The translations under genes and the position numbers were made by a program. Positions 11,817 through 64,000 of a stretch of DNA of 64,000 bases are shown here, one piece after another (the stretch's first letter is position 1; every line of letters starts with the position of its first letter). Source of the stretch: an uncultured Muribaculaceae bacterium (GTDB lineage Bacteria; Pseudomonadota; Alphaproteobacteria; Rs-D84); contig CAZPLT010000001.1 in NCBI GenBank assembly GCA_964587855.1, forward strand, positions 83,523-147,522, read 5' to 3'. Below the pieces are notes generated by a model. It worked only from the letters and a program-made list of their open reading frames with translations, was not told the origin of the DNA and ran no database searches.

Positions 11817-11874
11817 ATTGTGCTTGCTTTATAATGTGATTTTTTTATAAAATACGGGACAGGGAGAATTCATC

Positions 11875-16348: not shown

Positions 16349-16418
16349 TTCAATAATCCTATTGCAAAAGAGTTTGATTTGCAACATGTTTTCTGTTAGA
16401 ATAAGCTCAAGAGAGAAT

Positions 16419-23178: not shown

Positions 23179-24240
23179 TTATTCTGATGCGGCTTCTGCC
23201 TGGGATATAACTGCTTCACCAGCAGTTTTTAAATTAGTTAAATATGTTTTATAACTGGTGCAATCCCTGGAAATTTCGGATTTATAAGAATCGCGCAGGT
23301 TTGAAACCATATAAAAACACCCTTTCAAATGTTGAACACAGTAATTATGGCCGATCAAGAATGCGTTTTGTCCACGCAGGCTATCATCGGTTTCATCCGG
23401 CCAGTCTATATCCAGCGCATCGTTTAAAGATGCCATATCATTTGTGCCAGTATGTTCATAGAAAGTATCCTGCCATAGGTCTTCTAGTTCGGCATCTGTA
23501 ATACTGGTACTGGATGAACCGCCATTTTTTATAACAATTATTTGTTGTAAAATATTTTCTACTTCGGGACGCAGGGTATTGTCTATGTTAGCTAACTCAT
23601 CACTGCAAAAACAACGATTATAAGCAGCGTTTTTTCGTTCACAATATCCATCCATACAAGATCTGTAATCAGCCAAACATTGTGATGTGCTTACCGAAGT
23701 ATCAGAAACAGTGGTTATTGTTGTGTCAGAAGAGCGAGTTGAAGTATCCCCGCGTGAAGATCGTGCAGATACGGTTCTGTTTTGGATTCCCCTGGCAGAT
23801 GAAGAATGTGTTGTGGCGCTTTTTGCGGTTGAACCGCTTCGCGCAACCACTCTCTTGGTGCCCGATGAAGAATATGTTGAACCGCTTCGCGCGACTACCC
23901 TTCTGGTGCCAGATGAAGTAGAAGAATTGGTCCTGGATGTGGTACCGCTGCGTGCTAATTTTGCCCCAGACGTATTGCCAGAACCCGTGGCCGCACGCGC
24001 AAAAGCAGAAGATGTGTCAGGTGTATATTCAGTATTGCTGGAATATAAAGAAGTCTGCATTTTTTCATTCATAAATGGTCGCATTGTATTATAAGTTGCA
24101 GGATTTATGTAATTTGATGCGGTTGCTGATTCGGCATTATTAAAACAAGTAAAAGAAAGTGTAAACAAAATGGCAAAAGTCATCATGCGTGCAAAAAAAG
24201 CATGTTTATAGTTTGCTATTTTGTTTCTTTCAGGGCTCAT
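23179..24240 (-). CDS. Secreted Ser/Thr-rich tandem-repeat protein with Cys-rich C-terminal domain
   Basis: Signal peptide. TRRVVARSGST... ~19-aa repeats (57-bp DNA tandem repeat ~23825-23940). 9 Cys in C-terminal 150 aa. Immediately downstream of a GT-like gene. Confidence 0.55.
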   Translation of the reverse strand: MSPERNKIANYKHAFFARMMTFAILFTLSFTCFNNAESATASNYINPATYNTMRPFMNEKMQTSLYSSNTEYTPDTSSAFARAATGSGNTSGAKLARSGTTSRTNSSTSSGTRRVVARSGSTYSSSGTKRVVARSGSTAKSATTHSSSARGIQNRTVSARSSRGDTSTRSSDTTITTVSDTSVSTSQCLADYRSCMDGYCERKNAAYNRCFCSDELANIDNTLRPEVENILQQIIVIKNGGSSSTSITDAELEDLWQDTFYEHTGTNDMASLNDALDIDWPDETDDSLRGQNAFLIGHNYCVQHLKGCFYMVSNLRDSYKSEISRDCTSYKTYLTNLKTAGEAVISQAEAASE

Positions 24241-24242
24241 TT

Positions 24243-25061
24243 TTATTTTCCAATCCAATATTTTCTGATCCATTTGGTCGGACGAACGTGTCGTAAACCA
24301 AATTTTGCGGTATATCCGTTCATGGCTTCTTCATTAATTGGTCTTCCGTGGAAAATAACAACTTTTGCACCAACTGGTAATTTAGGTGTAATAAACCAAT
24401 TAAATGGGAATTTTAAAAGACAGCAATATTTGAATGATCGTACCCAAGATTTACACATTGGGCATTCTTCGCCGTTCCAAAAGCTGAAAATGCCTTTTTT
24501 ATGCATTTCACGGGACATATAAGCCTGCTCGTGACGCACTTCGTGACGAATTTGTTCAAAATTTTTCTCGAAATAATCCAAAATATCTTGATGTTTACCA
24601 ATTTCAAATCTAAATACGGATGAATTTCCAACAGAATTATCGTTTGCTCTGTCCCTAGAGATAATAAATTTACCAGGTTGACGGAATAAATCATCAATAT
24701 TATCTATGATTACAACGTCCAAGTCCAAGAAAAGACCAATTCCTTTTAAATTTCCCAGTTTTTCAGATAATAATCCCAGTTTTTTCCATCCACGTTCAGG
24801 CAGTCCATTACGTAATTTTACAGGTGGTAATGAAAATGTTTCGATACCCTTGTCTAAGCCTTTGGGATCTTCGGTAAAACAAACAAACCGATGGGGCAGG
24901 GTCAGGTTTTTTTCAACCATACGATACAGGCGATTTACATATTCTTTGCTGAATTTTTCACTGCCATCTTCGCGTCGCCACCACATACAAACTACATTTA
25001 ATTCTTGTTTATTGGCGGATTTTACGGGTTTAACGGTTTTTTTTGTCGTTATTTTTGGCAT
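24243..25061 (-). CDS. Putative GT-A-type glycosyltransferase (DxD-like LDLDVVIID motif)
   Basis: 272 aa, no TM. Acidic motif FLDLDVVIIDNIDDLF typical of nucleotide-sugar transferases. Identity not established. Confidence 0.35.
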   Translation of the reverse strand: MPKITTKKTVKPVKSANKQELNVVCMWWRREDGSEKFSKEYVNRLYRMVEKNLTLPHRFVCFTEDPKGLDKGIETFSLPPVKLRNGLPERGWKKLGLLSEKLGNLKGIGLFLDLDVVIIDNIDDLFRQPGKFIISRDRANDNSVGNSSVFRFEIGKHQDILDYFEKNFEQIRHEVRHEQAYMSREMHKKGIFSFWNGEECPMCKSWVRSFKYCCLLKFPFNWFITPKLPVGAKVVIFHGRPINEEAMNGYTAKFGLRHVRPTKWIRKYWIGK

Positions 25062-27668: not shown

Positions 27669-28475
27669 TTACTTACATAATATGTTTTTCATTTCTTCTA
27701 CAGGGAAACGTTCCTGGACCCAGCTGTCAGTATCGTACCCTTTCCAACCATTAGCTGATCCACCACTTGGGTTTTTTACCATAGTATTAACTATATTTCT
27801 ATTTGTATCCCGTATCTTTGTATTATAAAACATTATTTCATCTATGATTCTGGAAAGATATTCATCAATTCTGAAACTTTCAGGTTGTTTGTTGCCTTGG
27901 CAAAATTCTTGATAGGTAAGGCATTTGCTGCCTGTATTTATTCTGTATGGATCGTCAAACCCACGTGTAGCATATGCAAATCCCAGCGCAAAACACCAAT
28001 AAGAATAGTTAAGAAAATCACAAGTTATATCCAGTCTTGTATTTGATGGAGCCTTTTTAGCTGCGCTAATTTCCCCGCTAAGGGTTGAGTCATGATCAAA
28101 AAATGCAACATATTTATTATATTTATTTGTGCAATCTTCTTTATTTCCAACAACCGAATCTTTGAGAAAGCTTATATATTCTGTTTTGGTTTGAATAGGT
28201 TGGTCCAAAGTATCGTATTTTTTTGAATAATAACTTGTAGATGATGAATCTGAATCGTTAATACGTGGGGACGATCCCCTGGTGCTAGAAGAAGACGTAG
28301 TTGGATTTGTTCGTGGCATGACCAGCGAACGGACAAATGTAGGCATGTCTGAGTAAAGATCTGAATATGCCGAAGAAAGCAATGATTCTTCAGGTGTTCG
28401 AGAATTTTGCCTTTGTGAAGAAAAAGCTACAATCGGAATAAATAGTAAAGCAGTTAAAGTATAAAGTTTTCGCAA
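27669..28475 (-). CDS. Secreted Ser-rich protein, unknown
   Basis: Signal peptide, S/T-rich low-complexity region, Cys-containing C-terminal domain. Confidence 0.5.
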   Translation of the reverse strand: MRKLYTLTALLFIPIVAFSSQRQNSRTPEESLLSSAYSDLYSDMPTFVRSLVMPRTNPTTSSSSTRGSSPRINDSDSSSTSYYSKKYDTLDQPIQTKTEYISFLKDSVVGNKEDCTNKYNKYVAFFDHDSTLSGEISAAKKAPSNTRLDITCDFLNYSYWCFALGFAYATRGFDDPYRINTGSKCLTYQEFCQGNKQPESFRIDEYLSRIIDEIMFYNTKIRDTNRNIVNTMVKNPSGGSANGWKGYDTDSWVQERFPVEEMKNILCK

Positions 28476-35571: not shown

Positions 35572-36600
35572 ATGTTTGACCCAACATTAGTAGTTCAATC
35601 GGCAATAAGCAGTTTTAATAATATCGCATTGCACAGTCCAGACTTTTTTTGGAGCACCCTGCTCTGTCTACCTATTTTCGCAGTATTCTGGATTTTTGCT
35701 CCAGAAATCACCACAAGATTTTTGCCAGATTCAAAAAAGCGCTTAAAAACAATTGCAACGTGGAGTATTGCTTTTATTGCGATATGGTTATTAAGTCACG
35801 AAAGTTTTAACGCTTTGCGTGATGGAATTTCTTTGGGAATTTCTGCATTAACTGCTGCATGCGTTTTTGTTTTATCTTTGTTTGCTGGCTGGCATGTTCC
35901 GTCGTTTAGCAATCTTGTAAATATTAAAGAAAAATGGCGCAAAAAAGCAGATATAGTTGCACCAATAATTGCTGCGGCATTGATTGGATTATGTGCGTGG
36001 GGGACATGGCAGACAATTTTGGTTCAATTTATTGCGACTTTGTTCGGTTTTTATGCTGGGCGTTTAATGGTTTATCGTAATCGTCACAAAATGGGTTCAG
36101 AAAGTTTAGTAATATTATTGATGGGGTTATTGCTTTTTGGTTTAGTTATGCAGCCCGAGTTTTTCCGATTCGGTCAATTGGGTCATTTGACCATAATTCA
36201 TACTTTGTCTTTAATATTTACTTTGGTAACAATAATTGTCAGCATTATGATGCGTTCGGTCAGACCAACTGGCTGGTTAAAAAAATCACATTATAAAAAA
36301 TTAATGTGGTTAATGCGTGCCGGTATTATATTAGCATTGGTATTATTTTTGATGACAGAAAATGCTCTGGCTTTTGCAGTATTGGGTATGGGTATTTTTG
36401 TTCAATCATTCATAGTTATACGTCATCGTGCTCCATCGGATAGCAATTTATTAAAAAATTGGTCCGAAGATTTATGGATTTTATCTTTGGGATTATTTGG
36501 TTTATTAACAACAATGCCCACAATAATTTGTGCGGTAATAATTTTGGTTCGTACAAGGGTCAAATTTAGCGCCAAGGCAGCAATTAAAAGCGTGTTATAA
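35572..36600 (+). CDS. Polytopic integral membrane protein, unknown
   Basis: ~9-10 predicted TM helices. No recognisable motif. Confidence 0.5.
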   Translation: MFDPTLVVQSAISSFNNIALHSPDFFWSTLLCLPIFAVFWIFAPEITTRFLPDSKKRLKTIATWSIAFIAIWLLSHESFNALRDGISLGISALTAACVFVLSLFAGWHVPSFSNLVNIKEKWRKKADIVAPIIAAALIGLCAWGTWQTILVQFIATLFGFYAGRLMVYRNRHKMGSESLVILLMGLLLFGLVMQPEFFRFGQLGHLTIIHTLSLIFTLVTIIVSIMMRSVRPTGWLKKSHYKKLMWLMRAGIILALVLFLMTENALAFAVLGMGIFVQSFIVIRHRAPSDSNLLKNWSEDLWILSLGLFGLLTTMPTIICAVIILVRTRVKFSAKAAIKSVL

Positions 36601-38594: not shown

Positions 38595-40529
38595 TTATTT
38601 TAATGGGGGGTAGCATTCGCCGTCCGCTATCGCGCAGCATGCATAGCCATTCATACTTTCTACCCATCTAAAACTTTCCCCTGAGCAACAACCATTTTCA
38701 TCTGGGGCGTCGCCACTGGTGCATAATTGCGAAGAAACTGTATTATGTTCTTCATTGTAATTTGATGGACCATGTACTGGATATTCTGGTTTCAGTGGTA
38801 ATGTTATTGTTGATTTTTCATCTGGAACGGATATAACCTCTGGCTCTGGTTCTTGTACGGGTTCAGGCTCGGCAATTGGTGCGGGCATTGGTTCTGGTTC
38901 CGCCACAGGTTCTGGCATTGCGACTGGCGCGGGCATTGGTTCTGGTTCAATGACTGGCGCTGGTTGTGGTTCCGGTTCTGTGATAACTGGGACTGGCTGT
39001 GGTTGTGGTTTTACAATCGGTGCTGGCTGAGGCATGGGTTGTGGTGCCGGTTCCGCAACTGGTTCTGGCTGGGGCATTATAAATGCAGATTCATTTGTTT
39101 GTGGTGCTGGTGCGGTTTCTGTCGGAACATTTTCAGAAACGACACTGGGTTGCGCCAGATTTGGTGTTCCAGATTTATCCATTCTGGATTGATAAATAGA
39201 CAAAGTTAAAATGCAAAGTCCGATTAAAATAACCAACATTATATAATAAACAAAGCTGGGCTTTTTTGCCCCAACAGGTGGGTGCAAAACTGTAACATCA
39301 GGATTTGTTATTGGGGATGCGGGTCTTTCCATTTCAACCGGCGGCACCACTGGCGGAACGGTTGGTTCTGATAACTTTGCAATAGGCTGTTGTTGTGGTA
39401 CAGCAATAGTTTGCTGAGGCATATTCACAGGTATAGTTGTTGGTTCAGTCGTATTGATAACCGGTTCAACAACAGTTGGTTCAATCGGCTGTGGTGCAGT
39501 GAAAGTTATCGAATCGGGGGTTGTTGTGTTGTCTTCCGAATTTGTTTGCTTGATATTAAATTCTGTTGGATTAAATGAAGGTGTTTCAAATCCAATCGGT
39601 TGGAAAGCAATTTTATCATCTATTATTTCAGGATCTTTGTTAAACAAAGGTTTTGGTTCATCTGCCATTCTTGGCTCCTGTGATTTTTCTATATTTATTA
39701 AATCTTTGACGTTATTTGTCGCCTTTAATACATTGCGTGCTGCGGTTGAATCATTTCTTGCATCTTCCAGTCTTTTTTTTGCGCGACGCAATCTGGCCTT
39801 TGCCCGTTTTTCTTTTTCGTTTACTTTATCCATTTGGGATTGGACTTTTAATATTTTTGCTGCGGATTCTTTTGTTGGTTTTTTCCCAACTTCACTGCGT
39901 ATTTTGTTCAACTTTGTTTTCAAAGATTTGATATTAGAATGTAATTTAATCAGGGATTCTTCGGTTTTTTTAATGGTTTCGGTTGAAATCTCAATTTCAC
40001 GCATAGCAGCATTTAATCTGGCCTGGGCCAATTCTTGACCGACAGTTATTCTAAACTTATTTAAATTATCCAATGCATTATCTATGGTTCCACCTGTTTT
40101 ATAATCAGCAATAAGTTGCCCATAAACAGGCAATCCTGTATAATTTATATCCAGCTTTTGATATTTATTATTTTTCTTTGGACGGACGTCTTCCAAATCC
40201 ATTTTATAATCATTGCTTAAAATATCGTCCCATTTGCGCCCTTCCCGATCCGCAATTATCAATAATATATTCGGAGTGTTTTCGGTACGTGTTTCATCCA
40301 ACACAAATATAAGTTTGTGATCAGCATCATAAAAAGCAGAAAATTTATTTCCAGAGATGTTAAAAGATTCCGTCATAATTTTATCAGTATATTTAGAATT
40401 ATTGAAAGAAAATACAGGCATGTCAGAATCTGGCATGGTTGCGATATGTGTGCTAGAAAAATTTTCTCTCTCGTTATTTGCCATTTTTAAGACTTCTTTG
40501 GTGGTGGCATTTGGTATGCTGCGCGGCAA
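38595..40529 (-). CDS. Bitopic protein with PEPxPAP-type proline repeats and Cys-rich C-terminal domain
   Basis: ~430-aa N-terminal region with coiled coil (KLNKIRSEV...RAKARLRRAKKRLEDAR). Single TM (YYIMLVILIGLCILTLSIY). >15 Pro-rich degenerate repeats. C-terminal 10-Cys domain. Alternative start 40484. Confidence 0.55.
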   Translation of the reverse strand: MPRSIPNATTKEVLKMANNERENFSSTHIATMPDSDMPVFSFNNSKYTDKIMTESFNISGNKFSAFYDADHKLIFVLDETRTENTPNILLIIADREGRKWDDILSNDYKMDLEDVRPKKNNKYQKLDINYTGLPVYGQLIADYKTGGTIDNALDNLNKFRITVGQELAQARLNAAMREIEISTETIKKTEESLIKLHSNIKSLKTKLNKIRSEVGKKPTKESAAKILKVQSQMDKVNEKEKRAKARLRRAKKRLEDARNDSTAARNVLKATNNVKDLINIEKSQEPRMADEPKPLFNKDPEIIDDKIAFQPIGFETPSFNPTEFNIKQTNSEDNTTTPDSITFTAPQPIEPTVVEPVINTTEPTTIPVNMPQQTIAVPQQQPIAKLSEPTVPPVVPPVEMERPASPITNPDVTVLHPPVGAKKPSFVYYIMLVILIGLCILTLSIYQSRMDKSGTPNLAQPSVVSENVPTETAPAPQTNESAFIMPQPEPVAEPAPQPMPQPAPIVKPQPQPVPVITEPEPQPAPVIEPEPMPAPVAMPEPVAEPEPMPAPIAEPEPVQEPEPEVISVPDEKSTITLPLKPEYPVHGPSNYNEEHNTVSSQLCTSGDAPDENGCCSGESFRWVESMNGYACCAIADGECYPPLK

Positions 40530-41008
40530 TGTTCATAACAATATGGTTTGCCGGGAAAAACCTTGGCTCCACAAAAATGGAAATTTTCTGAATCTGGATT
40601 GCCAATTGGCCAACGACATTGGTCTGGTCTTAACATTGCCAATTCAACAGCGTGCTGAATCATATGTTGATGCGCGACCAGGTTTTTTTTGCTGGTTACA
40701 GTAGTTTTGTTTGCTGGGGCCTTTGGGGATGGCGCTGTGACTTTTTTAGTTTTTGCGGTATTAGCCGGAACTTTTTTAACATTATCTTTTTTTGCTGGTT
40801 TAACCTTTATAACAATTTCTTTCTTTGCAGGTGCTTTTTTATTAGCATTAGCAACAGATTTGTTGTTCCAGCCCAGGCGATTCAGTTTGCCTACAACGGC
40901 ATTTTTGGACATGCCGATTTTTTTGCCGATTTCAGAAGTGCTCATGCCCTTTTCTAGCAAGGCTTTCATTTTGTTTAAGGTTGCGGGGGTCCATCCGATA
41001 GATGCCAT
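40487..41008 (-). CDS. gcrA: GcrA cell-cycle regulator
   Basis: N-terminal W-T-x-x-x-x-x-x-L-x-x-L-W-x-x-G-x-S-x-x-x-I-x-x-x-x-G (MASIGWTPATLNKMKALLEKGMSTSEIGKKIG...NAVVGKLNRLGW). C-terminal CRWPIGNP...FHFCGAKVFPGKPYCYEH. Confidence 0.85.
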   Translation of the reverse strand: MASIGWTPATLNKMKALLEKGMSTSEIGKKIGMSKNAVVGKLNRLGWNNKSVANANKKAPAKKEIVIKVKPAKKDNVKKVPANTAKTKKVTAPSPKAPANKTTVTSKKNLVAHQHMIQHAVELAMLRPDQCRWPIGNPDSENFHFCGAKVFPGKPYCYEHCRAAYQMPPPKKS

Positions 41009-41089: not shown

Positions 41090-41533
41090 ATGTTAGCGAT
41101 TTTTATAATTTTATTACTAGCAGCAGTGTTTTGCGCGGCTATGATGTGCAAAAATGATTGGAAAAACAGAATAATACCAGATGTTTATCTTTTCCCTTTT
41201 ATGTTAATTGGGTTATTAGTGGTCACATTTTTCCCATGGTTCTTTGATTTTGGGGAATCTGTGATTGCCGGCACGATTGGTTATGGGCTGGGAATTATTA
41301 TGGGATTGCTGTTCAAAAAAAAGTCCCCCGAAGCTATTGGAATGGGCGATGTAAAATTGATGGCAGCTGGTGGTATATGGTTGGGCGCCAGCGGTTTGGC
41401 AGTTTCTTTGATAATATCTTGTGTTTTGGGCGGAGTATGGGGAATGCTTAAAAAACAAAAATTTATTCCATTTGCCCCTTTCTTTTTTATCGGCGCAATT
41501 TGTTCTTTAATAATAATGGGAATAATGATATAA
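41090..41533 (+). CDS. A24-family prepilin peptidase, CpaA/TadV-like (short form)
   Basis: Two catalytic-Asp contexts (IPDVY..., GMGDVKL). 5 TM. 147 aa. Confidence 0.55.
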   Translation: MLAIFIILLLAAVFCAAMMCKNDWKNRIIPDVYLFPFMLIGLLVVTFFPWFFDFGESVIAGTIGYGLGIIMGLLFKKKSPEAIGMGDVKLMAAGGIWLGASGLAVSLIISCVLGGVWGMLKKQKFIPFAPFFFIGAICSLIIMGIMI

Positions 41534-41546
41534 TTGACCAGAGAGA

Positions 41547-42641
41547 ATGAAAAAAGTATACGCTTTTTCAATGGCTGTTGCATGCTGGATAATCCCCGCT
41601 GGGATCGCATGCGCTACAGATTTCCCATTGTCCCAATACGGTCAGATTCAAAATGTCCAAAGCTATTCTTCTAACCCTTTTTATAATCCAGACAGCCCTT
41701 ATAATCAGCGCATGCCGACAGCAATTTATGCCCAGGGAACAGAATTAAATGCTGGGGAATGTCGCAATGTTGTTGATGTAATAGTCGGTGGATTATGCGC
41801 ACAACGTAATAATTGCGAAGGATTAAGTTTATCTGATATTCGTCCATCGGTGGTAATCCAATTATCAAATTTGACTGGACATAACTATGTTACGGCTTGT
41901 AATGGTTATATTCAACCATCATTTGAAGATTATATGAAAAATAACAGTGCGGTAAAAGTTACTGGCTTTCCATCGGCTTTTCCAACAGTTAATTCAACAC
42001 AAACAGAAAATTCATCCAGTGAATTGATTTTAAGTAATCCTTATGAATTGAAAAAAGCAGATTGGGAGAACAATAAAACTGCACGTCAAAATGAACTGCG
42101 TGCTTTACAAAGACAAAATGGTTCTGATGATGTAGCGTTGGCAGCAACAAAATTTCCAACAACTTATGCTGATTTATCTTTTACAGAAAGAATGGAAAAT
42201 GACCAGGCTGGATATGAACCATGGAAAGATGCCCAGGCTTATAAACCAATTAAAATAGAAGACGATGAAACAAGATATGAAAGAGAAAACGAACTCGCCC
42301 AACAACAATTAGAATTAGCAAAAAAACAAGATGAATTGTTACAGGTTACAAGTCAATGTACATGGTGTTATAACAATCAAACAAAATGTTATAATGATTT
42401 AGCCAAACAAGTTAATGATTTAAACAAGAGCAGAAAAGATAATGCTTGTTCAGAAAAGGTCTCTGGAACAGACACTTCATATATCGCACAAGATGTAGTC
42501 TCAGATGCTAAGTGCGGCTGGATTCTAAAAGATAATGTCAGAACGGTAACTTTAACCGACGCGGATTGTGGCACACCGTCTAATGGAAATAATACCGGAA
42601 ATGGTTCAAGTGATAATCCTATAGTTATTGATCTAGGGTAA
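41547..42641 (+). CDS. Secreted protein (364 aa), unknown
   Basis: Signal peptide. Cys pairs. Asn/Gln-rich. No domain recognised. Confidence 0.5.
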   Translation: MKKVYAFSMAVACWIIPAGIACATDFPLSQYGQIQNVQSYSSNPFYNPDSPYNQRMPTAIYAQGTELNAGECRNVVDVIVGGLCAQRNNCEGLSLSDIRPSVVIQLSNLTGHNYVTACNGYIQPSFEDYMKNNSAVKVTGFPSAFPTVNSTQTENSSSELILSNPYELKKADWENNKTARQNELRALQRQNGSDDVALAATKFPTTYADLSFTERMENDQAGYEPWKDAQAYKPIKIEDDETRYERENELAQQQLELAKKQDELLQVTSQCTWCYNNQTKCYNDLAKQVNDLNKSRKDNACSEKVSGTDTSYIAQDVVSDAKCGWILKDNVRTVTLTDADCGTPSNGNNTGNGSSDNPIVIDLG

Positions 42642-42643
42642 AA

Positions 42644-43741
42644 ATGAAAAAATATTTGAATATTTTTATTATATTCATTTTTATAGGCTGTTTTTATAGC
42701 GCTAGAAGTTATGGAGAAAATAATCCAACAAGTGCGTTTGAAGAATGTATGCAAAGGATACTTGCGGCTGATGATAATAAAAATGGCAAATCTGATTTTG
42801 CAGAAGAACTTGATAAACTGTTGGGAAATCCGAAAGATATAGAAAGTTTTACATCAGCTGCTAATTCAAAAGCCAATATAATAGCAGTTGCGATTACTGG
42901 TGCAGCATTTCATAAAGAAGATGGATTTTGTAATGATTTAATAATGAAAATTGCAAATGAGACAAAAGAATCATTTACCTTTGGATTAAAAAAGTTTGAT
43001 AAAACAGTACAATTTAAAATTAGTAAAAACAAGTTATTAGAACAATATAAAGTTGCGCTTGGAATACTTGTTGCGAATACTTCATCCTGGCAATATCCAA
43101 AAGTTATAGACAGAGATTATATTAGCGAAAAAACATGGGATAATGATTGCTCAGATTATTCATCTAAAAATCCATTTGATTCTGTTTATGATAGCGACCC
43201 TGTAAATATAGCTATGCAAAAAATAAAAGGTGACAGCGAAGAATATTTTATTGATGAACCAGAACATATGCACGCTTTCCCAGGATTGATAATAGAGGAT
43301 GTTACGTATCAAGATTTAGCTAATTTAGTTATTATGGATAATATTCCGATGGCAAAAGAGGAGATAACTAAATTTGCAACAAATGTAGCATCTTTATCTG
43401 GTGAATGCAAAGGGCATTATGCATATCTTGTATCGTATGTTGTCCCTGAAAAAATTAATACAGGGGTTGGACCTGGGCAAAGATGGGGAACAAATTTTGC
43501 CGTAGCCGGTATAACTGTAGCTGCTATTGGTGGTGCTACGGCTACTTGGGCTTCCGGTTCTCTTTTAGCGGGTATATTTGCTACAGCTGAAGTGTCTTCG
43601 GTAGTTCCAGTTGTTGGTTGGATAGTAGCAGCAGCATTAGTAGTAGTTGGTGGGGTTGTTGCCCTTGTTTCTTCTACGTCTACAGAAACTTTGGCAGATT
43701 TGCCACAAATGATGGTTGTAGATGGCCCATATCCATTATAA
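42644..43741 (+). CDS. Secreted protein with C-terminal Gly/Ala-rich hydrophobic segment (365 aa), unknown
   Basis: Signal peptide. C-terminal AGITVAAIGGATATWASGSLLAGIFA...VVGGVVALV (glycine-zipper-like). Confidence 0.5.
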   Translation: MKKYLNIFIIFIFIGCFYSARSYGENNPTSAFEECMQRILAADDNKNGKSDFAEELDKLLGNPKDIESFTSAANSKANIIAVAITGAAFHKEDGFCNDLIMKIANETKESFTFGLKKFDKTVQFKISKNKLLEQYKVALGILVANTSSWQYPKVIDRDYISEKTWDNDCSDYSSKNPFDSVYDSDPVNIAMQKIKGDSEEYFIDEPEHMHAFPGLIIEDVTYQDLANLVIMDNIPMAKEEITKFATNVASLSGECKGHYAYLVSYVVPEKINTGVGPGQRWGTNFAVAGITVAAIGGATATWASGSLLAGIFATAEVSSVVPVVGWIVAAALVVVGGVVALVSSTSTETLADLPQMMVVDGPYPL

Positions 43742-43789
43742 ATAATTATATAAATAATAAAAAACCGCCGAATTGGCGGTTTAATTTTT

Positions 43790-43863
43790 TGGTGCGGGCG
43801 GCGGGAATCGAACCCGCGTCTCGAGCTTGGAAGGCTTGCATTCTACCATTGGACTACGCCCGC
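43790..43863 (-). tRNA. tRNA-Gly (anticodon TCC)
   Basis: Reverse complement GCGGGCGTAGTCCAATGGTAGAATGCAAGCCTTCCAAGCTCGAGACGCGGGTTCGATTCCCGCCGCCCGCACCA. Anticodon loop CTTCCAA. Confidence 0.85.
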
Positions 43864-43876
43864 GATGCAAATTTTT

Positions 43877-43962
43877 TGGTGGGAGCGGTTGGAGTCGAAC
43901 CAACTCAAGCAAAGCTAACAGATTTACAGTCTGCCCCGGCTCTCCGACTCCGGCGCGCGCCC
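43877..43962 (-). tRNA. tRNA-Tyr (anticodon GTA), long variable arm
   Basis: Reverse complement GGGCGCGCGCCGGAGTCGGAGAGCCGGGGCAGACTGTAAATCTGTTAGCTTTGCTTGAGTTGGTTCGACTCCAACCGCTCCCACCA. Anticodon loop CTGTAAA. T-arm GTTGG-TTCGACT-CCAAC. C at position 8 and a C4.U69 acceptor mismatch are noted. Confidence 0.7.
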
Positions 43963-44017
43963 TAAAAATAAAAATAAAAAGACGAAAAAACGCTGTTGCG
44001 CTCTTTCGTCCAGATTT

Positions 44018-44093
44018 TGGCAGCCCCAACCGGAGTCGAACCGGTGTTCTCGCCTTGAAAGGGCGGTGTCCTGGGCCTCTAGACGATGGGGCC
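44018..44093 (-). tRNA. tRNA-Glu (anticodon TTC)
   Basis: Reverse complement GGCCCCATCGTCTAGAGGCCCAGGACACCGCCCTTTCAAGGCGAGAACACCGGTTCGACTCCGGTTGGGGCTGCCA. Very close to canonical bacterial tRNA-Glu. Confidence 0.85.
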
Positions 44094-44100
44094 AAAAATA

Positions 44101-44177
44101 TGGCGGGATTGACGGGGATCGAACCCGCGACCTTCTGCGTGACAGGCAGACGCTCTAACCAGCTGAGCTACAACCCC
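44101..44177 (-). tRNA. tRNA-Asp (anticodon GTC)
   Basis: Reverse complement GGGGTTGTAGCTCAGCTGGTTAGAGCGTCTGCCTGTCACGCAGAAGGTCGCGGGTTCGATCCCCGTCAATCCCGCCA. Confidence 0.9.
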
Positions 44178-44327
44178 AATTATCATCTTATGCTAATCCG
44201 TGGGATTAAAGATGAAGGCTCGCCAAGTTTATACTTTTCAATAATAAAAATCAAGGCTTTTTTTCATCTGGGTAAGAGCTGCTTGCCTCCCTGCTCTTTT
44301 TCGTGTTATAATAATTATTCAGAGAGA

Positions 44328-46169
44328 ATGAAAAAACAAATCGGATTTTTTGCAATTATTTTTTGCGCTGTTTTTTTAGTGTCTGGTTTTATTTATGCTG
44401 ATGATTTACAAACCCCGGATGTTCAGGGTATTGTTGATAGTATATCAACACCTAAAACTTCGGAAAATACTATTCAGGCAACATGTGCTCAACAAGTTTT
44501 TGCCCAGGCATTAATTGCAGATGCTGCATCGGTTAATGAAGACTCGCCCGAGGTCGATATCCAGGCATGGATATATAAAAATTTCCAAAGTCCCAATACA
44601 ATACAAAAAGTTTTGAATTGCACCGAAATAAGTCAATTGGCGGATGATGATACAATGACTGTTCCACCTGTAGAATATAGATTCCCAGCGGGGCGTAAAA
44701 TAGTTGTAAATTATGAAACCCAGCCGAAAATTTTAAAACAACGTTTATTAATTGCTAATAAGCGTGCAATCCCTTGTACTACCGATGATTGTATATCACC
44801 AAAAATTGGTGCGGCAAATGACCCAAATCTTTGGACCAATACCGAGCCAGCATGGTATGGAATTTTGGTTGTTCAAGCTGGCGCATTGGATCCTTATATT
44901 GGTGAAGAAAAAAATAATGTAATTGCATTAAAATATATAGAAGAAAACGTCGATATTTTTTATCCGCATAATTATAATAAAACTTTAATACATACTAATT
45001 CTGGTCCCAGATGTACTTCGCGCAGTGCTTTTGCAAATGACAGCGATATTGTAAATCTAGCAACAACTAAATCTGTCGGAATTGAATCTTATGGGGATGA
45101 AGATGGTGATGGGCAAAAAGATACAAATGATTACTATGTTGCAGGTGATGTTAACTTACAATGGGTTGCCTGGTCCGAGATTGCATTGGATGTTGTAATA
45201 ACCGTTGCAACAGTTGGCGGTGGAACAATATTAATTGGTGCAACCAAGGGTTTGCGAGCAGCCAAAGCAGCAAAAAATTTAGCTAAGAGCATAAAAGTTT
45301 TAAAAGAAGCAGATGCAGTTAAAGATTATATAAGTCTTGTAAATAAAGCGTCAAAAGCCGCAGAAGAATTAAAAGCTATAGACAAAGTAACAGATGCAGC
45401 TAAATGGGCCAAGAAATCAGATGAAATAAAAGATCTAGAAAAAACGATAAAAGAAACAGAAAAAGTAGGTGATGTAAAAAAATATAAAGAAGCAGTTTCG
45501 ACTTTCGGAAAGATACAAGATTTACGACGAGGAATGAAGGCTTGGAAAATACCACAACGTGGAAATGTTATTGCTCGTAGTTGGCGTGTAGCCAAGAATT
45601 TTACTAAATTATTAAGAAGTGGAAAAACAATAAGCAAGGCGGAACGAGTCGCTCGTGCTGGTATGAAATCCGGAAAACTTCGTAATTGGTTGTTTGTTAG
45701 CACCATGAAAAATGTGGGTCGTTTGGCAAGAATGGAACGACAAGCCGGAATACTTTATGGCGCTATGACACTTATTGAAGGGGCGTATGATTGGACCGAA
45801 ACTTCAACAGGGGAATTTTCTAGCAATATAGAATTAAAGCCATTTTGCTTATTATCAGCCGATGATTTGCCTGGTGGACAAGACAATATAGTTAATTATG
45901 GTATGTGGTTGATGTGGGCGGGGGATTCTTTGTCTGCCGAAGATGATGATGCGGCATTTTTACAAGCAATGGATTTTGCAAATAAATTCCACCAAGATAT
46001 GCAAGAAACTCAATATGAAGAAACCGAAAAAGGCCGCAGTAATAATGACATGTGTGATGTTGATATATTCGTTGTGCGACCAATCATCAAAAATCCAGAT
46101 TCAGATAATCCAGAACTTTATTATCTTATTATGAATGATGTTCCATGGAGTATTCGTACAGCTGAGTAA
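44328..46169 (+). CDS. Large secreted protein (613 aa), unknown; Lys-rich central coiled region
   Basis: The ORF-track 5' extension (43827-44327) runs antisense through the tRNA array and is spurious. Real start is MKKQIGFFAIIFCAVFLVSG after a GAGAGA RBS. Confidence 0.55.
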   Translation: MKKQIGFFAIIFCAVFLVSGFIYADDLQTPDVQGIVDSISTPKTSENTIQATCAQQVFAQALIADAASVNEDSPEVDIQAWIYKNFQSPNTIQKVLNCTEISQLADDDTMTVPPVEYRFPAGRKIVVNYETQPKILKQRLLIANKRAIPCTTDDCISPKIGAANDPNLWTNTEPAWYGILVVQAGALDPYIGEEKNNVIALKYIEENVDIFYPHNYNKTLIHTNSGPRCTSRSAFANDSDIVNLATTKSVGIESYGDEDGDGQKDTNDYYVAGDVNLQWVAWSEIALDVVITVATVGGGTILIGATKGLRAAKAAKNLAKSIKVLKEADAVKDYISLVNKASKAAEELKAIDKVTDAAKWAKKSDEIKDLEKTIKETEKVGDVKKYKEAVSTFGKIQDLRRGMKAWKIPQRGNVIARSWRVAKNFTKLLRSGKTISKAERVARAGMKSGKLRNWLFVSTMKNVGRLARMERQAGILYGAMTLIEGAYDWTETSTGEFSSNIELKPFCLLSADDLPGGQDNIVNYGMWLMWAGDSLSAEDDDAAFLQAMDFANKFHQDMQETQYEETEKGRSNNDMCDVDIFVVRPIIKNPDSDNPELYYLIMNDVPWSIRTAE

Positions 46170-46237
46170 TCAGTATTTATTCTTATTGTATTATTTGAAA
46201 ATATTTTCTATTATTATTTTGATAAAGAGGTTTTAGC

Positions 46238-46555
46238 ATGAAAAAAATATTTATTTTTGGATTATTGATAACAATTTGTGCATCTGCGGGTGCTTATACT
46301 CTTAAATCACAAAAAGAGTTAGGCAAAGATGATGCAAAAAATCAAAATATGGTTGTTCAGTGCACTACTACAAATGGCAAAGTATCAAGTCAAACCTGCC
46401 AATTACGTCGTTATGCAAAATGTAAAAAAACTTCATCAGGTAAGCAAAATTGCAGTGGATGGCAACAATGGCAAGATTTACGTAATCCTGGGGCTGGATA
46501 TTCTGATTGGCGCAAAGCAGCCGAAGCTTGCTGTCAATCCAAGGGGTTAAGATAA
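46238..46555 (+). CDS. Small secreted Cys-rich protein (105 aa)
   Basis: Signal peptide. 8 Cys. RBS aagagg. Confidence 0.5.
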   Translation: MKKIFIFGLLITICASAGAYTLKSQKELGKDDAKNQNMVVQCTTTNGKVSSQTCQLRRYAKCKKTSSGKQNCSGWQQWQDLRNPGAGYSDWRKAAEACCQSKGLR

Positions 46556-46584
46556 AAAATCCGCCATTTGGCGGATTTTTTAAC
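46554..46584. terminator. Bidirectional terminator
   Basis: A6-tccgcc-atttg-gcgga-T6 between convergent genes. Confidence 0.75.
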
Positions 46585-46599
46585 AATTTTATTGATTTA

Positions 46600-46950
46600 T
46601 TATCTGCTGTGAACAGCGGCTAAAGAATATATTTCAGCAAAGTCTTTTTCATCAATAGTGTTATGACTTTCAGGACTGGTTGAATCAGTTAAAGAATTAT
46701 TAATCTTACCGTTAACAAAATGGCGATCCTTTTTTGTAAAAATCTGCCCATTAAATTCAATAGTTGAACGTCCAAGTTTGTAATTCTCACGGATTTTCGC
46801 GATTTCTTTACCATTTTGCGATACTGAAAATATTTCTATATTGTCATCCCCCAGCTGTTTTACCTGCCCTTCTGTTATCGCTGTTATTAATAATTTTTTA
46901 ATACTTGCATCAAATATGGATTTCTTTCCAAAATTAGTTTTAATTTCCAT
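46600..46950 (-). CDS. Hypothetical protein (116 aa)
   Basis: ORF with no recognisable motif. Convergent on the terminator. Confidence 0.35.
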   Translation of the reverse strand: MEIKTNFGKKSIFDASIKKLLITAITEGQVKQLGDDNIEIFSVSQNGKEIAKIRENYKLGRSTIEFNGQIFTKKDRHFVNGKINNSLTDSTSPESHNTIDEKDFAEIYSLAAVHSR

Positions 46951-47033: not shown

Positions 47034-47762
47034 CTATTGTACACTGGCATTTGATGGGAAGAAAGTCAGCTGAATAGTCTTCCATTTTTCATACTCATTT
47101 TCAGGAAGCATACTGAAAGGCTGACAGTTTGAAACGGCCGAGCGAATGGTTTCAAAAATGTATGCCATGGCCGGGTCGTTAGCGGCGGCGGATTCTTGTT
47201 CAAACCACAGACTTTGCACGAAGCCGCGTTGATTCATAGACAGATGTGCAACAGCGCGAATATTTTCAATCCCCGGATAGGTTTTATTAAATACCCAACA
47301 ACGTGTCATTGCAAAACGCAGTGCATCAACCACAGAAACTGTCATGGTGCGGTTCAAACTGGTTGTTTCACGATTAACACGAACAATAGTGGTTGCTTTT
47401 TGCGCATTTGGGGTTGGCTTGGTATCGGTTTTTTTAACCGGATCCGGCAAAGCAGTCATTTTTTCTATTTTTTTATCATCGTCCCCCAGTGGTTCAACTG
47501 GTTCAGGCTTTTTTTCTTGTTTTTTCTGTTGTTGTTCATCTTTTGGCAATTCGGGGGCTTCGGTATTAAATACAAGTGTTTCGTCGCCTTTTATTTCAAC
47601 ACGGGATAAATCTATATCATAAATTTGAACATGGTCAGACATAACAATCTGGTCCATAGGGTTCAATATTGCAAACGAAGTAATCATTATGGCAAGAATG
47701 CTCAAATGCCCCGCAACGGATGCCAATAAGTTTTCTGAAAAAAATGATTTTTTATTTTTCAA
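47034..47762 (-). CDS. tolA: TolA-like protein (N-terminal TM, charged linker, TolA/TonB-type C-terminal domain)
   Basis: Position downstream of tolQ-tolR. Single TM. Lys/Glu/Pro-rich linker (KDEQQQKKQEKKPEPVEP). Confidence 0.6.
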   Translation of the reverse strand: MKNKKSFFSENLLASVAGHLSILAIMITSFAILNPMDQIVMSDHVQIYDIDLSRVEIKGDETLVFNTEAPELPKDEQQQKKQEKKPEPVEPLGDDDKKIEKMTALPDPVKKTDTKPTPNAQKATTIVRVNRETTSLNRTMTVSVVDALRFAMTRCWVFNKTYPGIENIRAVAHLSMNQRGFVQSLWFEQESAAANDPAMAYIFETIRSAVSNCQPFSMLPENEYEKWKTIQLTFFPSNASVQ

Positions 47763-51361: not shown

Positions 51362-52282
51362 ATGGCAATATTTATGGGTGCATTTAAAAAGGCAAAAACA
51401 TTCGGTTTATTGGCATTGGTCGCGGCTACTTTTCCATTTGCGTCAAGCATAGCCGAAGAATTACAAACAATTTATACAGATATTCCGGCTGCTTCATACT
51501 ATGCACGCCCAGATGATCCGAACTTTGTTCCAGAAACAGAATTTATGCAACGTACAGACTCGCTGAATTATGACGACAATATAATTGCTGCGCAATCTGA
51601 ACAAACCGATGCAATGCCAGGGGTTCGTTTTACGGACAGACCGGCGGTTGTTTGCCGTGATTTTGGCTGTACCCGTTTGAATGATCGTATTACCAGAACC
51701 TTTTTATTTAACAGCTTGTCTGGCGTGTTTATGACTAATGCCCATTCTCAGGTTCATATTTGTGAGGCGGATCCATTTTCACGTGTTTGTTTGCAATCTG
51801 GAATCAGTTTCCCAGTACGGGTTGGAATTGCAAATGCTTTGGTAAAAATCCCCCAGGCAACAATCACCCAGGTAAATATATCCACAGGATTGTCAAAAAC
51901 TACCATAGGGATGAGCTATGATTTCTTGGTAAATGGCATCAGTGTTCAATGTGCACCAGCATTAGTAGATTTGGTTATCCCTGCTAATTCCCAGGCTACA
52001 TTGGCTACTCGTGAATTTTCATGCAATATGACTACAGATGGTTTGACCAATGTTTCTTTATTGATAAATGTTGATTATATTGACTTAGACTTTGGTATGA
52101 TTGGTGGGTATTACTCATTGGGATTACAGGGCCCAGCGATTGGTGGTGGTACTGGATATGCTTTGTTTAAGATGGAGTTTGCAAACAAGGGTATGACAAT
52201 GCAAGCAGCCACCGATGAGAAAAAGCCAGAAGCTATAACAATTCAACCCGGAGAATATGCGGTTGAACCGATGGAAAAATAA
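51362..52282 (+). CDS. Secreted protein (306 aa), unknown
   Basis: Signal peptide (ALVAATFPFASSIA). No domain recognised. Confidence 0.5.
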   Translation: MAIFMGAFKKAKTFGLLALVAATFPFASSIAEELQTIYTDIPAASYYARPDDPNFVPETEFMQRTDSLNYDDNIIAAQSEQTDAMPGVRFTDRPAVVCRDFGCTRLNDRITRTFLFNSLSGVFMTNAHSQVHICEADPFSRVCLQSGISFPVRVGIANALVKIPQATITQVNISTGLSKTTIGMSYDFLVNGISVQCAPALVDLVIPANSQATLATREFSCNMTTDGLTNVSLLINVDYIDLDFGMIGGYYSLGLQGPAIGGGTGYALFKMEFANKGMTMQAATDEKKPEAITIQPGEYAVEPMEK

Positions 52283-61514: not shown

Positions 61515-61565
61515 TTGACGTATAATGCGAAATTTTGTAATCTGCTGACGCAAAAAGGAAGAAAA

Positions 61566-62078
61566 ATGAAAAAGATTTTATCATTATCATTATTTGGTAT
61601 TTTATTATATGCTATTGGGATTAGCGCGGTATCTGCAGTGTGTCCTGTATGTACGGTTGCAGTTGGCGCTGGGCTTGAGGGCGCACGTTTATTGGGCGTA
61701 GATGATGTAATTACTGGAATTTGGGCCGGAGCATTGACTTTATCAATGTTTTTCTGGACAGTTGGATGGCTTAAAAAGCGCAATGTAAAAAGCTTGCTTT
61801 TACAAATAATTTTACCATTTGTTTTGTATTATGCATTATTGGCGGGTGTTTATTTAATGCCTGGAATAAATTTTGGCGAACAAAAAATGTTCGGAATTGA
61901 TAAGTTTTTGCTGGGCGTGATTGTCGGAACAATTTCATTCTATTTTGGCGCACGTTGGTATAAAAAGATAAAGCGCGATAATGGCGGACATGCAAAATTC
62001 GCATTTCAGAAAGTTATAGTTCCAATTTGTTTCTTGCTGATTGCGACAGCAATCTTTGCAACAATAGTATATTTATAA
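61566..62078 (+). CDS. Membrane protein with CPxC motif (171 aa), unknown
   Basis: 4-5 TM. AVCPVCTVAVGAG near the N-terminus. Confidence 0.45.
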   Translation: MKKILSLSLFGILLYAIGISAVSAVCPVCTVAVGAGLEGARLLGVDDVITGIWAGALTLSMFFWTVGWLKKRNVKSLLLQIILPFVLYYALLAGVYLMPGINFGEQKMFGIDKFLLGVIVGTISFYFGARWYKKIKRDNGGHAKFAFQKVIVPICFLLIATAIFATIVYL

Positions 62079-62096
62079 ACAAAGGATGATTGAAAA

Positions 62097-62690
62097 ATGA
62101 AGAAGAAAGTTGAAAAAAAATTAACTTTGGAACAATTGATTGAAAAAGCGGATAATGTGAAGAAAGCAAATCCATTGGATTTATCTTCGGATCAAGATTT
62201 AACAATTGCTTTGATGAATTTGGTATCACTGGAAGAACATTTTTTCTTTTCTGGTGCAAAAACCGGCAAAGTTGGTTTTTACGATTTGATAAATACAGTT
62301 CGTGATATGCGTAAAGAATTGATGTTGCGTATTGTAAAATCTAATGACTCAAAAAATGGCGAAGTATGGTGTATTTCAAAGCATTTATTGGCTGCATCAA
62401 TGAGATTAAAAGAAGTTGGCGATAAAGCAAATGCCCAGGGTAAGAAAAAAGACGCCCAAGATTTGTATGAGAAAGCATATGATTTGTATTCTTTGTTCTG
62501 GGGAATCAATATGAATTTAATTGATATGGATGGGGTAAAGAAAATTGATGGTGAAATTTTGCCTTATAAATCTGGCGAAGATTGTGAAGAAATGAAAATA
62601 AAGTTCGCAAAAAAAACACTTACAAAAAAATCAACGACCAAGCGTTTGGGTGATTGGGTTCGTAATGCGGTTAATTGCTGTATAGAATAA
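62097..62690 (+). CDS. Hypothetical protein (197 aa)
   Basis: ORF with RBS aaggatg. No recognisable motif. Confidence 0.4.
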   Translation: MKKKVEKKLTLEQLIEKADNVKKANPLDLSSDQDLTIALMNLVSLEEHFFFSGAKTGKVGFYDLINTVRDMRKELMLRIVKSNDSKNGEVWCISKHLLAASMRLKEVGDKANAQGKKKDAQDLYEKAYDLYSLFWGINMNLIDMDGVKKIDGEILPYKSGEDCEEMKIKFAKKTLTKKSTTKRLGDWVRNAVNCCIE

Positions 62691-63171: not shown

Positions 63172-64000
63172 ATGATAGATTATAATAAAATCGCATCTGA
63201 TGTTTTGGATACAGAAATCAAGGGGTTAAGTGAATTAAAAACAGCGTTGATTGCGGACCCCGCATTTGGACGTGCTGTGGATTTGTTGGTACAAAGACGT
63301 GGCTCAATTGTTGTGACTGGAATGGGGAAATCAGGACACATTGCCAGAAAAATAGCAACAACAATGTCCAGTACAGGCAGCCGTGCATTTTTCTTGCATC
63401 CAGGCGAAGCATCACATGGTGATATGTCTATTATTTCTTCGGATGAAATTATTATTGCACTTTCTAATTCTGGTGAAACCAGAGAATTATTGGATATTGT
63501 CGGATATTCTAAACGATTTAATGTTCCCCTTATTTCAATTACCAGGGCTGAAAATTCTGCTTTGGCGCGTGCTGCTACGGTTTCTTTGGTTATGCCAGCT
63601 ATACCAGAATGTTGTATAATTGGTAAAGCACCAACGACCAGTATGTTACAGACAATGGCGTTGGGTGATGTGCTAACTGTTATTTTGGAACATGTAAATA
63701 ATTTAACCCCAGATATGTATAAAAGTTGGCATCCAGGTGGGAAATTAGGTGCATCTCTTATACGTGTATCAGATTTAATGCATAAAGGCGATGAATTACC
63801 AATTGTAAAAGAAAATGATTTATTTGAAACCGCGGTAGAGGTTATGGGACGCCCTGTTCGCTTTGGTTGTGTCGGAGTTGTTGATAATAATGGAAAATTG
63901 CTAGGTGTTTTCACCGATGGTGATATTCGCCGTCAAATTTCAAATGGGTTGCTTGGTAAGCAAATGAATGAAATTATGAAAACAAATCCACTGACAGTCA
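63172..64000 (+). CDS. kdsD: Arabinose-5-phosphate isomerase (SIS + CBS domains), 3'-truncated by window end
   Basis: Translating 63172 onward gives MIDYNKIASDVLDTEIKGL...GSIVVTGMGKSGHIARKIATTMSSTGSRAFFLHPGEASHGD...CVGVVDNNGKLLGVFTDGDIRR (SIS then CBS). It is absent from the ORF track because it has no stop in the window. The antisense ORF 63180-63914 is spurious. Confidence 0.85.
   Translation, partial: MIDYNKIASDVLDTEIKGLSELKTALIADPAFGRAVDLLVQRRGSIVVTGMGKSGHIARKIATTMSSTGSRAFFLHPGEASHGDMSIISSDEIIIALSNSGETRELLDIVGYSKRFNVPLISITRAENSALARAATVSLVMPAIPECCIIGKAPTTSMLQTMALGDVLTVILEHVNNLTPDMYKSWHPGGKLGASLIRVSDLMHKGDELPIVKENDLFETAVEVMGRPVRFGCVGVVDNNGKLLGVFTDGDIRRQISNGLLGKQMNEIMKTNPLTV

Follow-up and report, generated by a model that had tools for sequence, protein, structure and literature searches.

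An order-wide operon in Rs-D84 joins an A24 peptidase gene to genes for exported proteins with links to peptidoglycan hydrolases

A 64-kb stretch of DNA from an uncultured bacterium of the order Rs-D84 (64,000 nucleotides of contig CAZPLT010000001.1, assembly GCA_964587855.1; the window herein) contains an operon in which a short A24-type peptidase gene (A24) is followed by genes for four exported proteins (p364, p365, p613, and p105). Comparison with related loci indicates that this operon is core and vertically inherited, and that it occurs only in Rs-D84 (Candidatus Enterousia and relatives), a gut order with reduced genomes. We propose that its products form a complex of the inner membrane and periplasm, specific to the order, that docks peptidoglycan hydrolases so as to position or control them, and that the A24 peptidase is the maturase of this complex. 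This is the reading we prefer, and we hold it tentatively, as quite possible rather than probable.

Conservation across the order Rs-D84

A set of 81 loci was compared, 80 from a scan of one genome per species in GTDB and one from a Joint Genome Institute (JGI) metagenome contig (L001), together with an additional set of 10 JGI metagenome contigs. Matches to p613 were found in all 81 loci, followed by p105 (77), p364 (76), A24 (73), and two genes on the opposite strand, gcrA (70) and h644 (68). Genes missing from the set are mostly explained by short contigs. The canonical order has h644 and gcrA divergent from A24, p364, a variable gene, p613, an extra gene in some loci, and p105, with short or overlapping junctions. 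A24 adjoins p364 in 73 of the 81 loci, and the gcrA-h644 pair is always divergent from A24, also after inversions in two of the loci (L005 and L082). Any functional tie of gcrA and h644 to the operon is putative. The 10 metagenome contigs have the same arrangement, and a metagenome scan for divergent paralogs recovered the same operon and nothing else.

The one-genome-per-species scan identified p613 in 262 GTDB species genomes, all of them Rs-D84-type metagenome-assembled genomes (MAGs), with many titled Candidatus Enterousia and including a closed chromosome of 958,618 bp. At least 585 database homologs of p613 (45%–83% identity) all come from MAGs named as "Alphaproteobacteria/Rickettsiales bacterium", and a profile search of 1.84 billion representative proteins placed the family in just 136 clusters at 50% identity. 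Enterousia belongs to the order Rs-D84, whose members all have genomes smaller than ~1 Mb (PMC12306168). Three loci (L002, L004, and L055; contigs of 3–45 kb) carry the operon under the titles "uncultured Muribaculaceae bacterium" or "Bacteroides fragilis isolate ... cleanbin", and these records are likely mis-binned or mislabeled.

Median identities to relatives are 61% for p105, 58% for lpxB, 52% for gcrA, 50% for A24, 48% for p613, and 43% for p364, values that are typical of core genes and not of fast-evolving effectors. The block genes match the rest of the window in GC content (0.34–0.37, against a background of 0.377 ± 0.030) and in codon usage, where log-likelihood z scores for the five genes range from −0.48 to +1.52 relative to the other 55 genes in the window.

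Peptidoglycan hydrolases carry p364 modules

The p364 family (486 homologs, no Pfam match) is built from two conserved modules. In module A (~aa 27–135), an Asn/Pro/aromatic motif (QYGQIQNVQSYSSNPFYNP..PYNQRMP) that is invariant or nearly so, and disordered, precedes a helical domain with 4 Cys, and module B (~aa 203–241; FPTTYADLSFTERMENDQAGYEPW) is a linear motif of the form FPTT..D.SF.ER....GY.PY. The C-terminal tail is clade specific and the signal peptide is variable. An AlphaFold2 (AF2) model of p364 (pLDDT 72) has helices at residues 69–134, with the Asn/Pro/aromatic motif disordered.

A gene for a GH108 muramidase lies between p613 and p105 in 20 of the 81 loci, with a PG_binding_3 domain present where checked, and a hydrolase gene with p364 modules also occurs in 4 of the 10 metagenome loci. 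All 20 of the GH108 proteins begin with p364 module B, and seven have module A as well. In one genome, p364 shares ~86% identity with the N-terminal 270 aa of the GH108 protein, versus 49% between the p364 orthologs of loci L020 and L043. The modules thus evolve in concert within a genome, which points to a shared, co-evolving binding partner. The number of module-bearing proteins is one to three per locus.

Fusions tie the families together further. Two p613 homologs from different 50% clusters (P0079 and P0274) have a GH108 muramidase at the C-terminus. L082, the most divergent lineage found, has one gene in which the p364 modules are joined to an M23 peptidase, and the gene next to it joins them to a p613-like protein. 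The A24 gene of this lineage adjoins the module fusions on the opposite strand, and gcrA-h644 is still divergent from A24.

Architecture of p613, p105, and the variable third gene

The p613 protein starts with a Sec signal peptide (aa 1–24) and an N-terminal part, predicted to be periplasmic, with invariant C53, C98, and C229 (~aa 50–275). A Gly-rich first transmembrane segment (TM1; ~aa 279–305, LDVVITVATVGGGT) includes a strongly hydrophobic stretch at aa 285–303 and is followed by a Lys-rich helical bundle of variable length with an invariant PQRGN (~aa 306–460), a second segment that is weakly hydrophobic (~aa 463–488), and a C-terminal part (aa 489–613) that contains LLSADD, NxGMWxxW, CDVDIxVVRP, and an invariant C576. 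The AF2 model (pLDDT 67) is confident at ~50–250 and 500–610. One cysteine before TM1 (C229) and one after the second segment (C576) are invariant in p613 and its paralogs. This pattern suggests that the two globular parts lie in the oxidizing periplasm, joined by helices that make up a membrane hairpin.

The p105 protein is the most conserved member of the operon, with a mean column identity of 78%. It has a signal peptide ending in AxA (ANA|YQVLSSKELG) and a basic mature chain of ~85 aa with six invariant Cys.

Clustering of the gene between p364 and p613 yielded four main types. Type I (38 members) is Cys-rich with a glycine zipper, and type II (12 members) ends in CDWNEDDIDMY.... Type III (nine members) is a full p613 paralog from the middle of the N-terminal part (~aa 175) to the C-terminus (hhalign P = 100%, E = 1e-47). 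Type IV (six members), with C-terminal Gly-rich hydrophobic segments, is the type found in the window. Its representative there, p365, combines a Sec signal peptide and a periplasmic domain with three Gly/Ala-rich hydrophobic segments at aa 285–341 and a conserved tail (..QMMVVDGPYPL), and a homolog is detectable in 7 of the 81 loci. We rejected p365 as a further p613 paralog: the motifs are collinear, an order that hints at a degenerate relative of p613, but the match is not significant (hhalign P = 1.5%). Several species have the third gene fused to p364.

Several features had been described in a first-pass annotation made from the sequence of the window, and these were borne out. Each of the four partner proteins has an N-terminal hydrophobic segment, as expected of secreted proteins; p105 is Cys-rich (7 Cys); the Lys-rich middle of p613 corresponds to the helical region after the internal hydrophobic segment; and the glycine-zipper-like C-terminus of p365 corresponds to its three Gly-rich hydrophobic segments.

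Scans of the four partners with Pfam, NCBIfam, and PHROG produced sub-threshold noise only, and PDB-sequence profile searches with p613, p364, p105, and A24 gave nothing significant. Individual candidates that were discarded include an EexN lipoprotein for p105 (E = 2e-4, driven by the signal peptide), CrcB for the hydrophobic region of p365 (sub-threshold), SMBP, CHD5, or DUF5824 for the p613 coil (sub-threshold), and a TrwJ/VirB5 similarity (E = 0.5, in the coil region). The p364, p613, and p105 families are new, and the operon includes three or four new and highly conserved families without detectable fold relatives.

An A24 peptidase in a constant non-pilus context

The A24 protein matches Peptidase_A24 (PF01478) over residues 12–119 (E = 1.4e-17; 64.5 bits against a cutoff of 26.5), and this domain is present in all 120 A24 homologs among the matches listed. 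No NCBIfam model matched A24. Hydropathy gives five hydrophobic segments in its 147 aa, as in a polytopic membrane protein. The N-terminal methyltransferase/zinc-finger domain of PilD-type enzymes is absent, with the peptidase domain beginning at residue 12, which upholds the earlier description as a short CpaA/TadV-like peptidase and places the enzyme in the TadV/CpaA/FlaK type. The A24 of L082 is longer (252 aa, with a 100-aa N-terminal extension), and PF01478 is the sole domain detected in it.

Catalysis in the A24 family relies on two Asp residues that are conserved universally, the second of them within a GxGD motif (PMC10191384). Three aspartates, D23 (aD.rRRIIPD), D31, and D87 (GMGD), do not vary among 46 orthologs taken from the loci or among 42 from the database. 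Of these, D23 and D87 were assigned as catalytic by motif position (A24 had no match in the PDB profile search). Loss of the catalytic pair on careful alignment had been named by the first-pass annotation as grounds for abandoning its proposal, and the alignment retains both residues. From this conservation, the A24 enzyme looks active.

The closest known enzymes in form are TadV/CpaA of T4c (Tad/Flp) systems and archaeal FlaK/PibD (MEROPS A24), which are likewise peptidase-only proteins of ~150 aa with about five transmembrane segments, the first Asp near the first of these and the second in GxGD, and no zinc-finger or methyltransferase domain (PMC10191384). Unlike them, the A24 gene of the window lies outside a pilus or archaellum locus, with no pilin, ATPase, platform, or secretin gene nearby across ~90 loci, and its constant neighbors encode Sec-exported non-pilin proteins. 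The enzyme is new within a known family, and its constant non-pilus context is new.

Pilus genes and the peptidase substrate

A pilin, an extension ATPase, a platform protein, in diderms a secretin, and the peptidase form the defining core of type IV filaments (Table 1 in PMC10191384). The earlier statement that no Tad/Flp genes or pilin-like open reading frames (ORFs) lie nearby held for the 64-kb window in Pfam scans and a motif search. Among ORFs of 35 aa or longer, neither the window nor 1.43 Mb of related loci contained a T4-pilin or Flp motif, and, as local evidence, the Pfam-scanned ORFs of the window and the gene tables for L001, L082, and L084 included no filament ATPase, platform, or secretin. 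None of the loci has a pilin, ATPase, platform, or secretin gene within ~10 kb.

The question that the first-pass annotation raised, namely what the peptidase processes, still stands: there are no local pilus genes, and the neighbors are exported proteins without relatives in Pfam, NCBIfam, PHROG, or PDB. It is also sharper than that annotation could have known, since the association of A24 with these genes spans the whole order. The partners' own signal peptides were rejected as class III substrates. In class III signal peptides the hydrophobic helix is retained and conserved. All four partners have Sec/signal peptidase I-type N-termini, with a basic stretch, a variable hydrophobic core, AxA, and a strongly conserved mature N-terminus, and the variable cores and AxA are the opposite of the class III pattern.

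Two further candidates were set aside. Cleavage of p613 at GG|LLYG before the second segment would release a pilin-sized C-terminal piece, but the motif is absent in type III and the segment is short and polar; we retain this site as an experimental candidate only. The topology of h644 (N-in/C-out) would suit an A24 substrate, but its junction, RKP[TS], has no Gly or Ala at −1.

The active site of A24 enzymes faces the cytoplasmic side of the membrane (PMC10191384). Among the operon products only the hairpin proteins would expose anything on that side, and we therefore propose p613, its type III paralog, and perhaps p365 as possible substrates, although the paralogs share no conserved Gly-1 junction.

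An ordinary TadV/CpaA-type prepilin peptidase would serve Flp or type IV pilins encoded elsewhere, its place in the operon being a gene order frozen in a small genome. We regard this explanation as rather unlikely. It agrees with a bona fide A24 enzyme whose dyad is intact and which, as T4c peptidases do, lacks a methylase domain (PMC10191384), and with the lack of a candidate cleavage site in the neighbors; a promoter-like element between A24 and p364 (described below) permits separate expression, and the scans for pilus genes covered loci rather than whole genomes. A frozen order fits less well with the persistence of A24 beside p364 in 73 of 81 genomes, through the inversions and rearrangements seen in L005 and L082, or with the absence of filament genes from the flanking ~10 kb of every locus. 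A genome survey that includes Rs-D84 also mentions type IV pili for another lineage only (PMC12306168).

Proposed function and remaining alternatives

In the complex that we propose, p613, and in many species its paralog in the third-gene slot, would form a helical hairpin inserted in the inner membrane. The regions that precede TM1 and follow the second segment would combine into a composite periplasmic alpha/beta domain, with the variable-length Lys-rich helical bundle between the two hydrophobic segments on the cytoplasmic side. The p364 protein would bind this platform through its N-terminal modules A and B. A GH108 muramidase with the same modules could occupy the same site in about a quarter of species, and an M23 endopeptidase would dock likewise in one divergent lineage. 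The p105 protein would be a small disulfide-rich periplasmic subunit. The A24 peptidase, with its active site at the cytoplasmic face, would act as a dedicated maturase of the hairpin proteins and not as a pilin peptidase. The docked hydrolases could act on the cell's own wall or on that of a partner.

As an analogy, the proposal can be likened to machines with docked hydrolases, such as FtsEX-EnvC-amidase, FlgJ of flagella, and VirB1 of type IV secretion systems (T4SS). As in these, a putative scaffold with cytoplasmic helices and a periplasmic domain appears to be linked to a module-bearing muramidase or M23 peptidase. Unlike FtsEX-EnvC, FlgJ, and VirB1, the operon has no sequence or fold similarity to such a machine and no ATPase, and the window and most species have no hydrolase gene in the operon.

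Several observations weigh against this proposal. The 64-kb window has no GH108 match and encodes one protein with a p364 module and no module-bearing hydrolase, so the hydrolase link comes from relatives only. The second "TM" of p613 is weakly hydrophobic, and a hypervariable third gene is a poor fit to a housekeeping role. No partner has a class III signal peptide, and no conserved Gly-1 hydrophobic junction is common to p613 and its paralogs; an A24 cleavage site was not found in the partner sequences. Many species have an extended −10-like element ahead of p364, a sign that A24 may in part be transcribed separately. Finally, the absence of pilus genes rests on local scans of the window and related loci, not of whole genomes.

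A broader scenario is that Rs-D84 lost type IV filaments entirely and that its A24 peptidase was repurposed to mature hairpin proteins of the p613 family. With p364 and p105, these would make up a new envelope machine to which interchangeable cell-wall hydrolases dock by way of a shared linear module, perhaps for remodeling or breaching peptidoglycan at contact with a partner. This scenario is doubtful, and we rate it about as high as an ordinary prepilin peptidase.

Less likely again is a partner-directed apparatus of the sort that a partner-dependent or epibiotic way of life would call for, in which p613 would be translocator-like and insert into membranes, the p364 modules would be delivery tags on interchangeable cargo such as a muramidase or endopeptidase for breaching the partner's wall, and the third gene would be exposed and diversifying. 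As in polymorphic effector systems, p364 combines conserved modules A and B with a variable C-terminus (Cys-rich tail, GH108, M23, or p613-like), and its module evolves in concert within a genome. As in type III secretion system (T3SS) translocators (SseC/IpaB) and XaxA pore formers, p613 has two Gly-rich hydrophobic helices beside long coiled coils. Unlike polymorphic effector systems, the loci have no recognizable toxin/immunity pairs, no known secretion apparatus, and only one to three module proteins each. The translocator and XaxA matches are all below significance or family cutoffs and are of a kind typical of coiled-coil and Gly-rich composition, and the operon proteins, unlike T3SS translocators, have Sec signal peptides and large conserved globular parts. 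A partner-directed role is further countered by an operon without an outer-membrane channel, secretin, ATPase, or immunity-like gene, by the conservation of p613 and p105 at the level of housekeeping genes, and by neighbors with housekeeping roles in the cell cycle and envelope (gcrA, lpxAB, and tolQR, with ftsB and rodZ in L082).

The first-pass annotation had viewed the block as a lineage-specific effector or surface-protein locus of proteins with no homology, marked by flanking tRNA genes. This view did not survive comparison: each protein has hundreds of homologs, all unannotated except the peptidase, and the block is syntenic in 73–81 of the 81 loci, an outcome that the annotation itself had listed as contradicting it. 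The tRNA signature is also local, with the array inside the operon restricted to the window, L003, and L004, and the comparison of GC content and codon usage shows a native composition (z = −0.48 to +1.52). We therefore consider it very improbable that the block is an effector or surface-protein island, horizontally acquired or lineage specific, that entered at a tRNA cluster: the array within the block, the partners without annotated homologs, and the poorly conserved p365 would suit this view, and it is opposed by order-wide synteny, native composition, an array found at this site in three genomes only, the lack of an integrase among the ORFs of the window and of att-like repeats flanking the array (the only repeats there are similar tRNA 3′ ends), and protein identities of 42%–57% among the 81 loci, which exclude recent transfers of one element.

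Layout and transcription signals of the window

The features of the block are listed in Table 1. The five plus-strand ORFs and four minus-strand tRNAs sit where they were originally placed according to ORF and tRNA calls, and the position of the block between gcrA and the tol cluster was confirmed by matches to PF07750 on one flank and to tolQ/tolR (PF01618/PF02472), accompanied by a weakly TolA-like ORF, on the other. Three of the four array tRNAs were confirmed by Rfam at the gathering score.

Table 1. Features of the A24–p105 block and its gcrA-side flank, with coordinates in the window
Feature	Coordinates	Strand	Basis and remarks
h644, 644-aa membrane protein	38595-40529	-	pairs with gcrA
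gcrA	40487-41008	-	PF07750; divergent from A24
A24 peptidase, 147 aa, peptidase domain only	41090-41533	+	PF01478 match
p364, 364 aa, Sec-exported	41547-42641	+	486 homologs, alignment, AF2
Module B of p364	42153-42269	+	regex and HMM matches; putative docking motif
p365, 365 aa, variable third gene, type IV	42644-43741	+	hydropathy, clustering
Bidirectional terminator-like hairpin	43762-43782		ends the A24-p364-p365 unit
tRNA-Gly(tcc)/Tyr(gta)/Glu(ttc)/Asp(gtc) array	43790-44177	-	clade-specific insertion splitting the operon, outside the system
Extended −10 promoter-like element and leader CAGAGAGAATGAAAAAA	44283-44349	+	TTGCCT-18-TATAAT preceded by TG
p613, 613 aa	44328-46169	+	homolog alignment, AF2, hydropathy
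p105, 105 aa, small basic periplasmic protein	46238-46555	+	invariant Cys
Intrinsic-terminator-like hairpin	46553-46582	+	ends the p613-p105 unit

Two hairpins and one promoter-like element would split the block of the window into two transcription units. The extended −10 element upstream of p613 spans 44283–44312. An exact 17-mer, CAGAGAGAATGAAAAAA, at the start of p613 is repeated at 41538–41554 before p364, and a TG-extended TATAAT lies upstream of both copies, which fall within 41530–41568 and 44311–44349. The 15-mer core of this sequence occurs twice in 64 kb (0.04 expected), just at the starts of p364 and p613. Relatives have a similar TATAAT...GAGAGA-ATG element 5′ of p364 and of p613. 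In many of them TGATATAAT...GAGAGA-ATG precedes p364, and its location inside the 3′ end of A24 points to an internal promoter.

A mechanical ORF of 780 aa (43827–46169) reads antisense through the four tRNA genes and was rejected as the extent of p613; homolog alignment sets the start at the ATG at 44328 (MKKQIG...). A public protein (P0001; 659 aa, 100% identical) begins just past tRNA-Asp, and its N-terminus is probably overextended by 46 aa. Exact-sequence contig searches with P0001 and with the A24 of the window gave no match.

Most relatives (L001, L007–L031, and others) have a Val/Leu/Ala/Leu tRNA cluster just downstream of p105, in either orientation, and the clade of the window has tolA-like, tolR, and tolQ genes at this position instead. 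Rearrangement seems to have recurred at this end of the operon.

The h644 gene lies beyond gcrA in 68 of the 81 loci. Its product has a cytoplasmic domain with a coiled coil, a conserved membrane helix (RPVSPITG...RKPT-YYIMLxxLIxLSIFTLWLYQK), a PEP/PAP-rich periplasmic spacer, and a C-terminal Cys-rich knob (C..G.APD.NGCC.GE...CC...G.CFPPL). A weak PHROG tape-measure match (E = 1.7e-8) probably reflects coiled-coil composition. The protein might be part of the operon's system.

Between p105 and the TolA-like gene is a minus-strand ORF of 116 aa (46600–46950) with no homolog in the 81 loci and no family match, which is either clade specific or not a gene. The ORF at the tolA position (47034–47762, minus strand) matches TIGR02794 over its C-terminal 70 aa (E = 0.002), with no Pfam match, and we read it as a very divergent TolA. 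Many other ORFs of the window have no Pfam match (11385–12483, 16362–17216, 23179–25061, 27669–28475, 35572–36600, 51362–52282, 61515–62690, and 63180–63914), several with signal-peptide-like N-termini. The window is rich in unannotated envelope proteins outside the reported block.

Implications

The accepted view of A24 peptidases is that they serve type IV pilins and archaellins only. Here, an A24 enzyme is kept across an order of genomes smaller than 1 Mb, always beside exported proteins that are not pilins. If pili prove to be absent, this would be the first clear case of the A24 protease class serving another class of substrate. The operon belongs to an abundant, uncultured gut lineage, for which it provides a defined target for study and a concrete link to cell-wall hydrolases.

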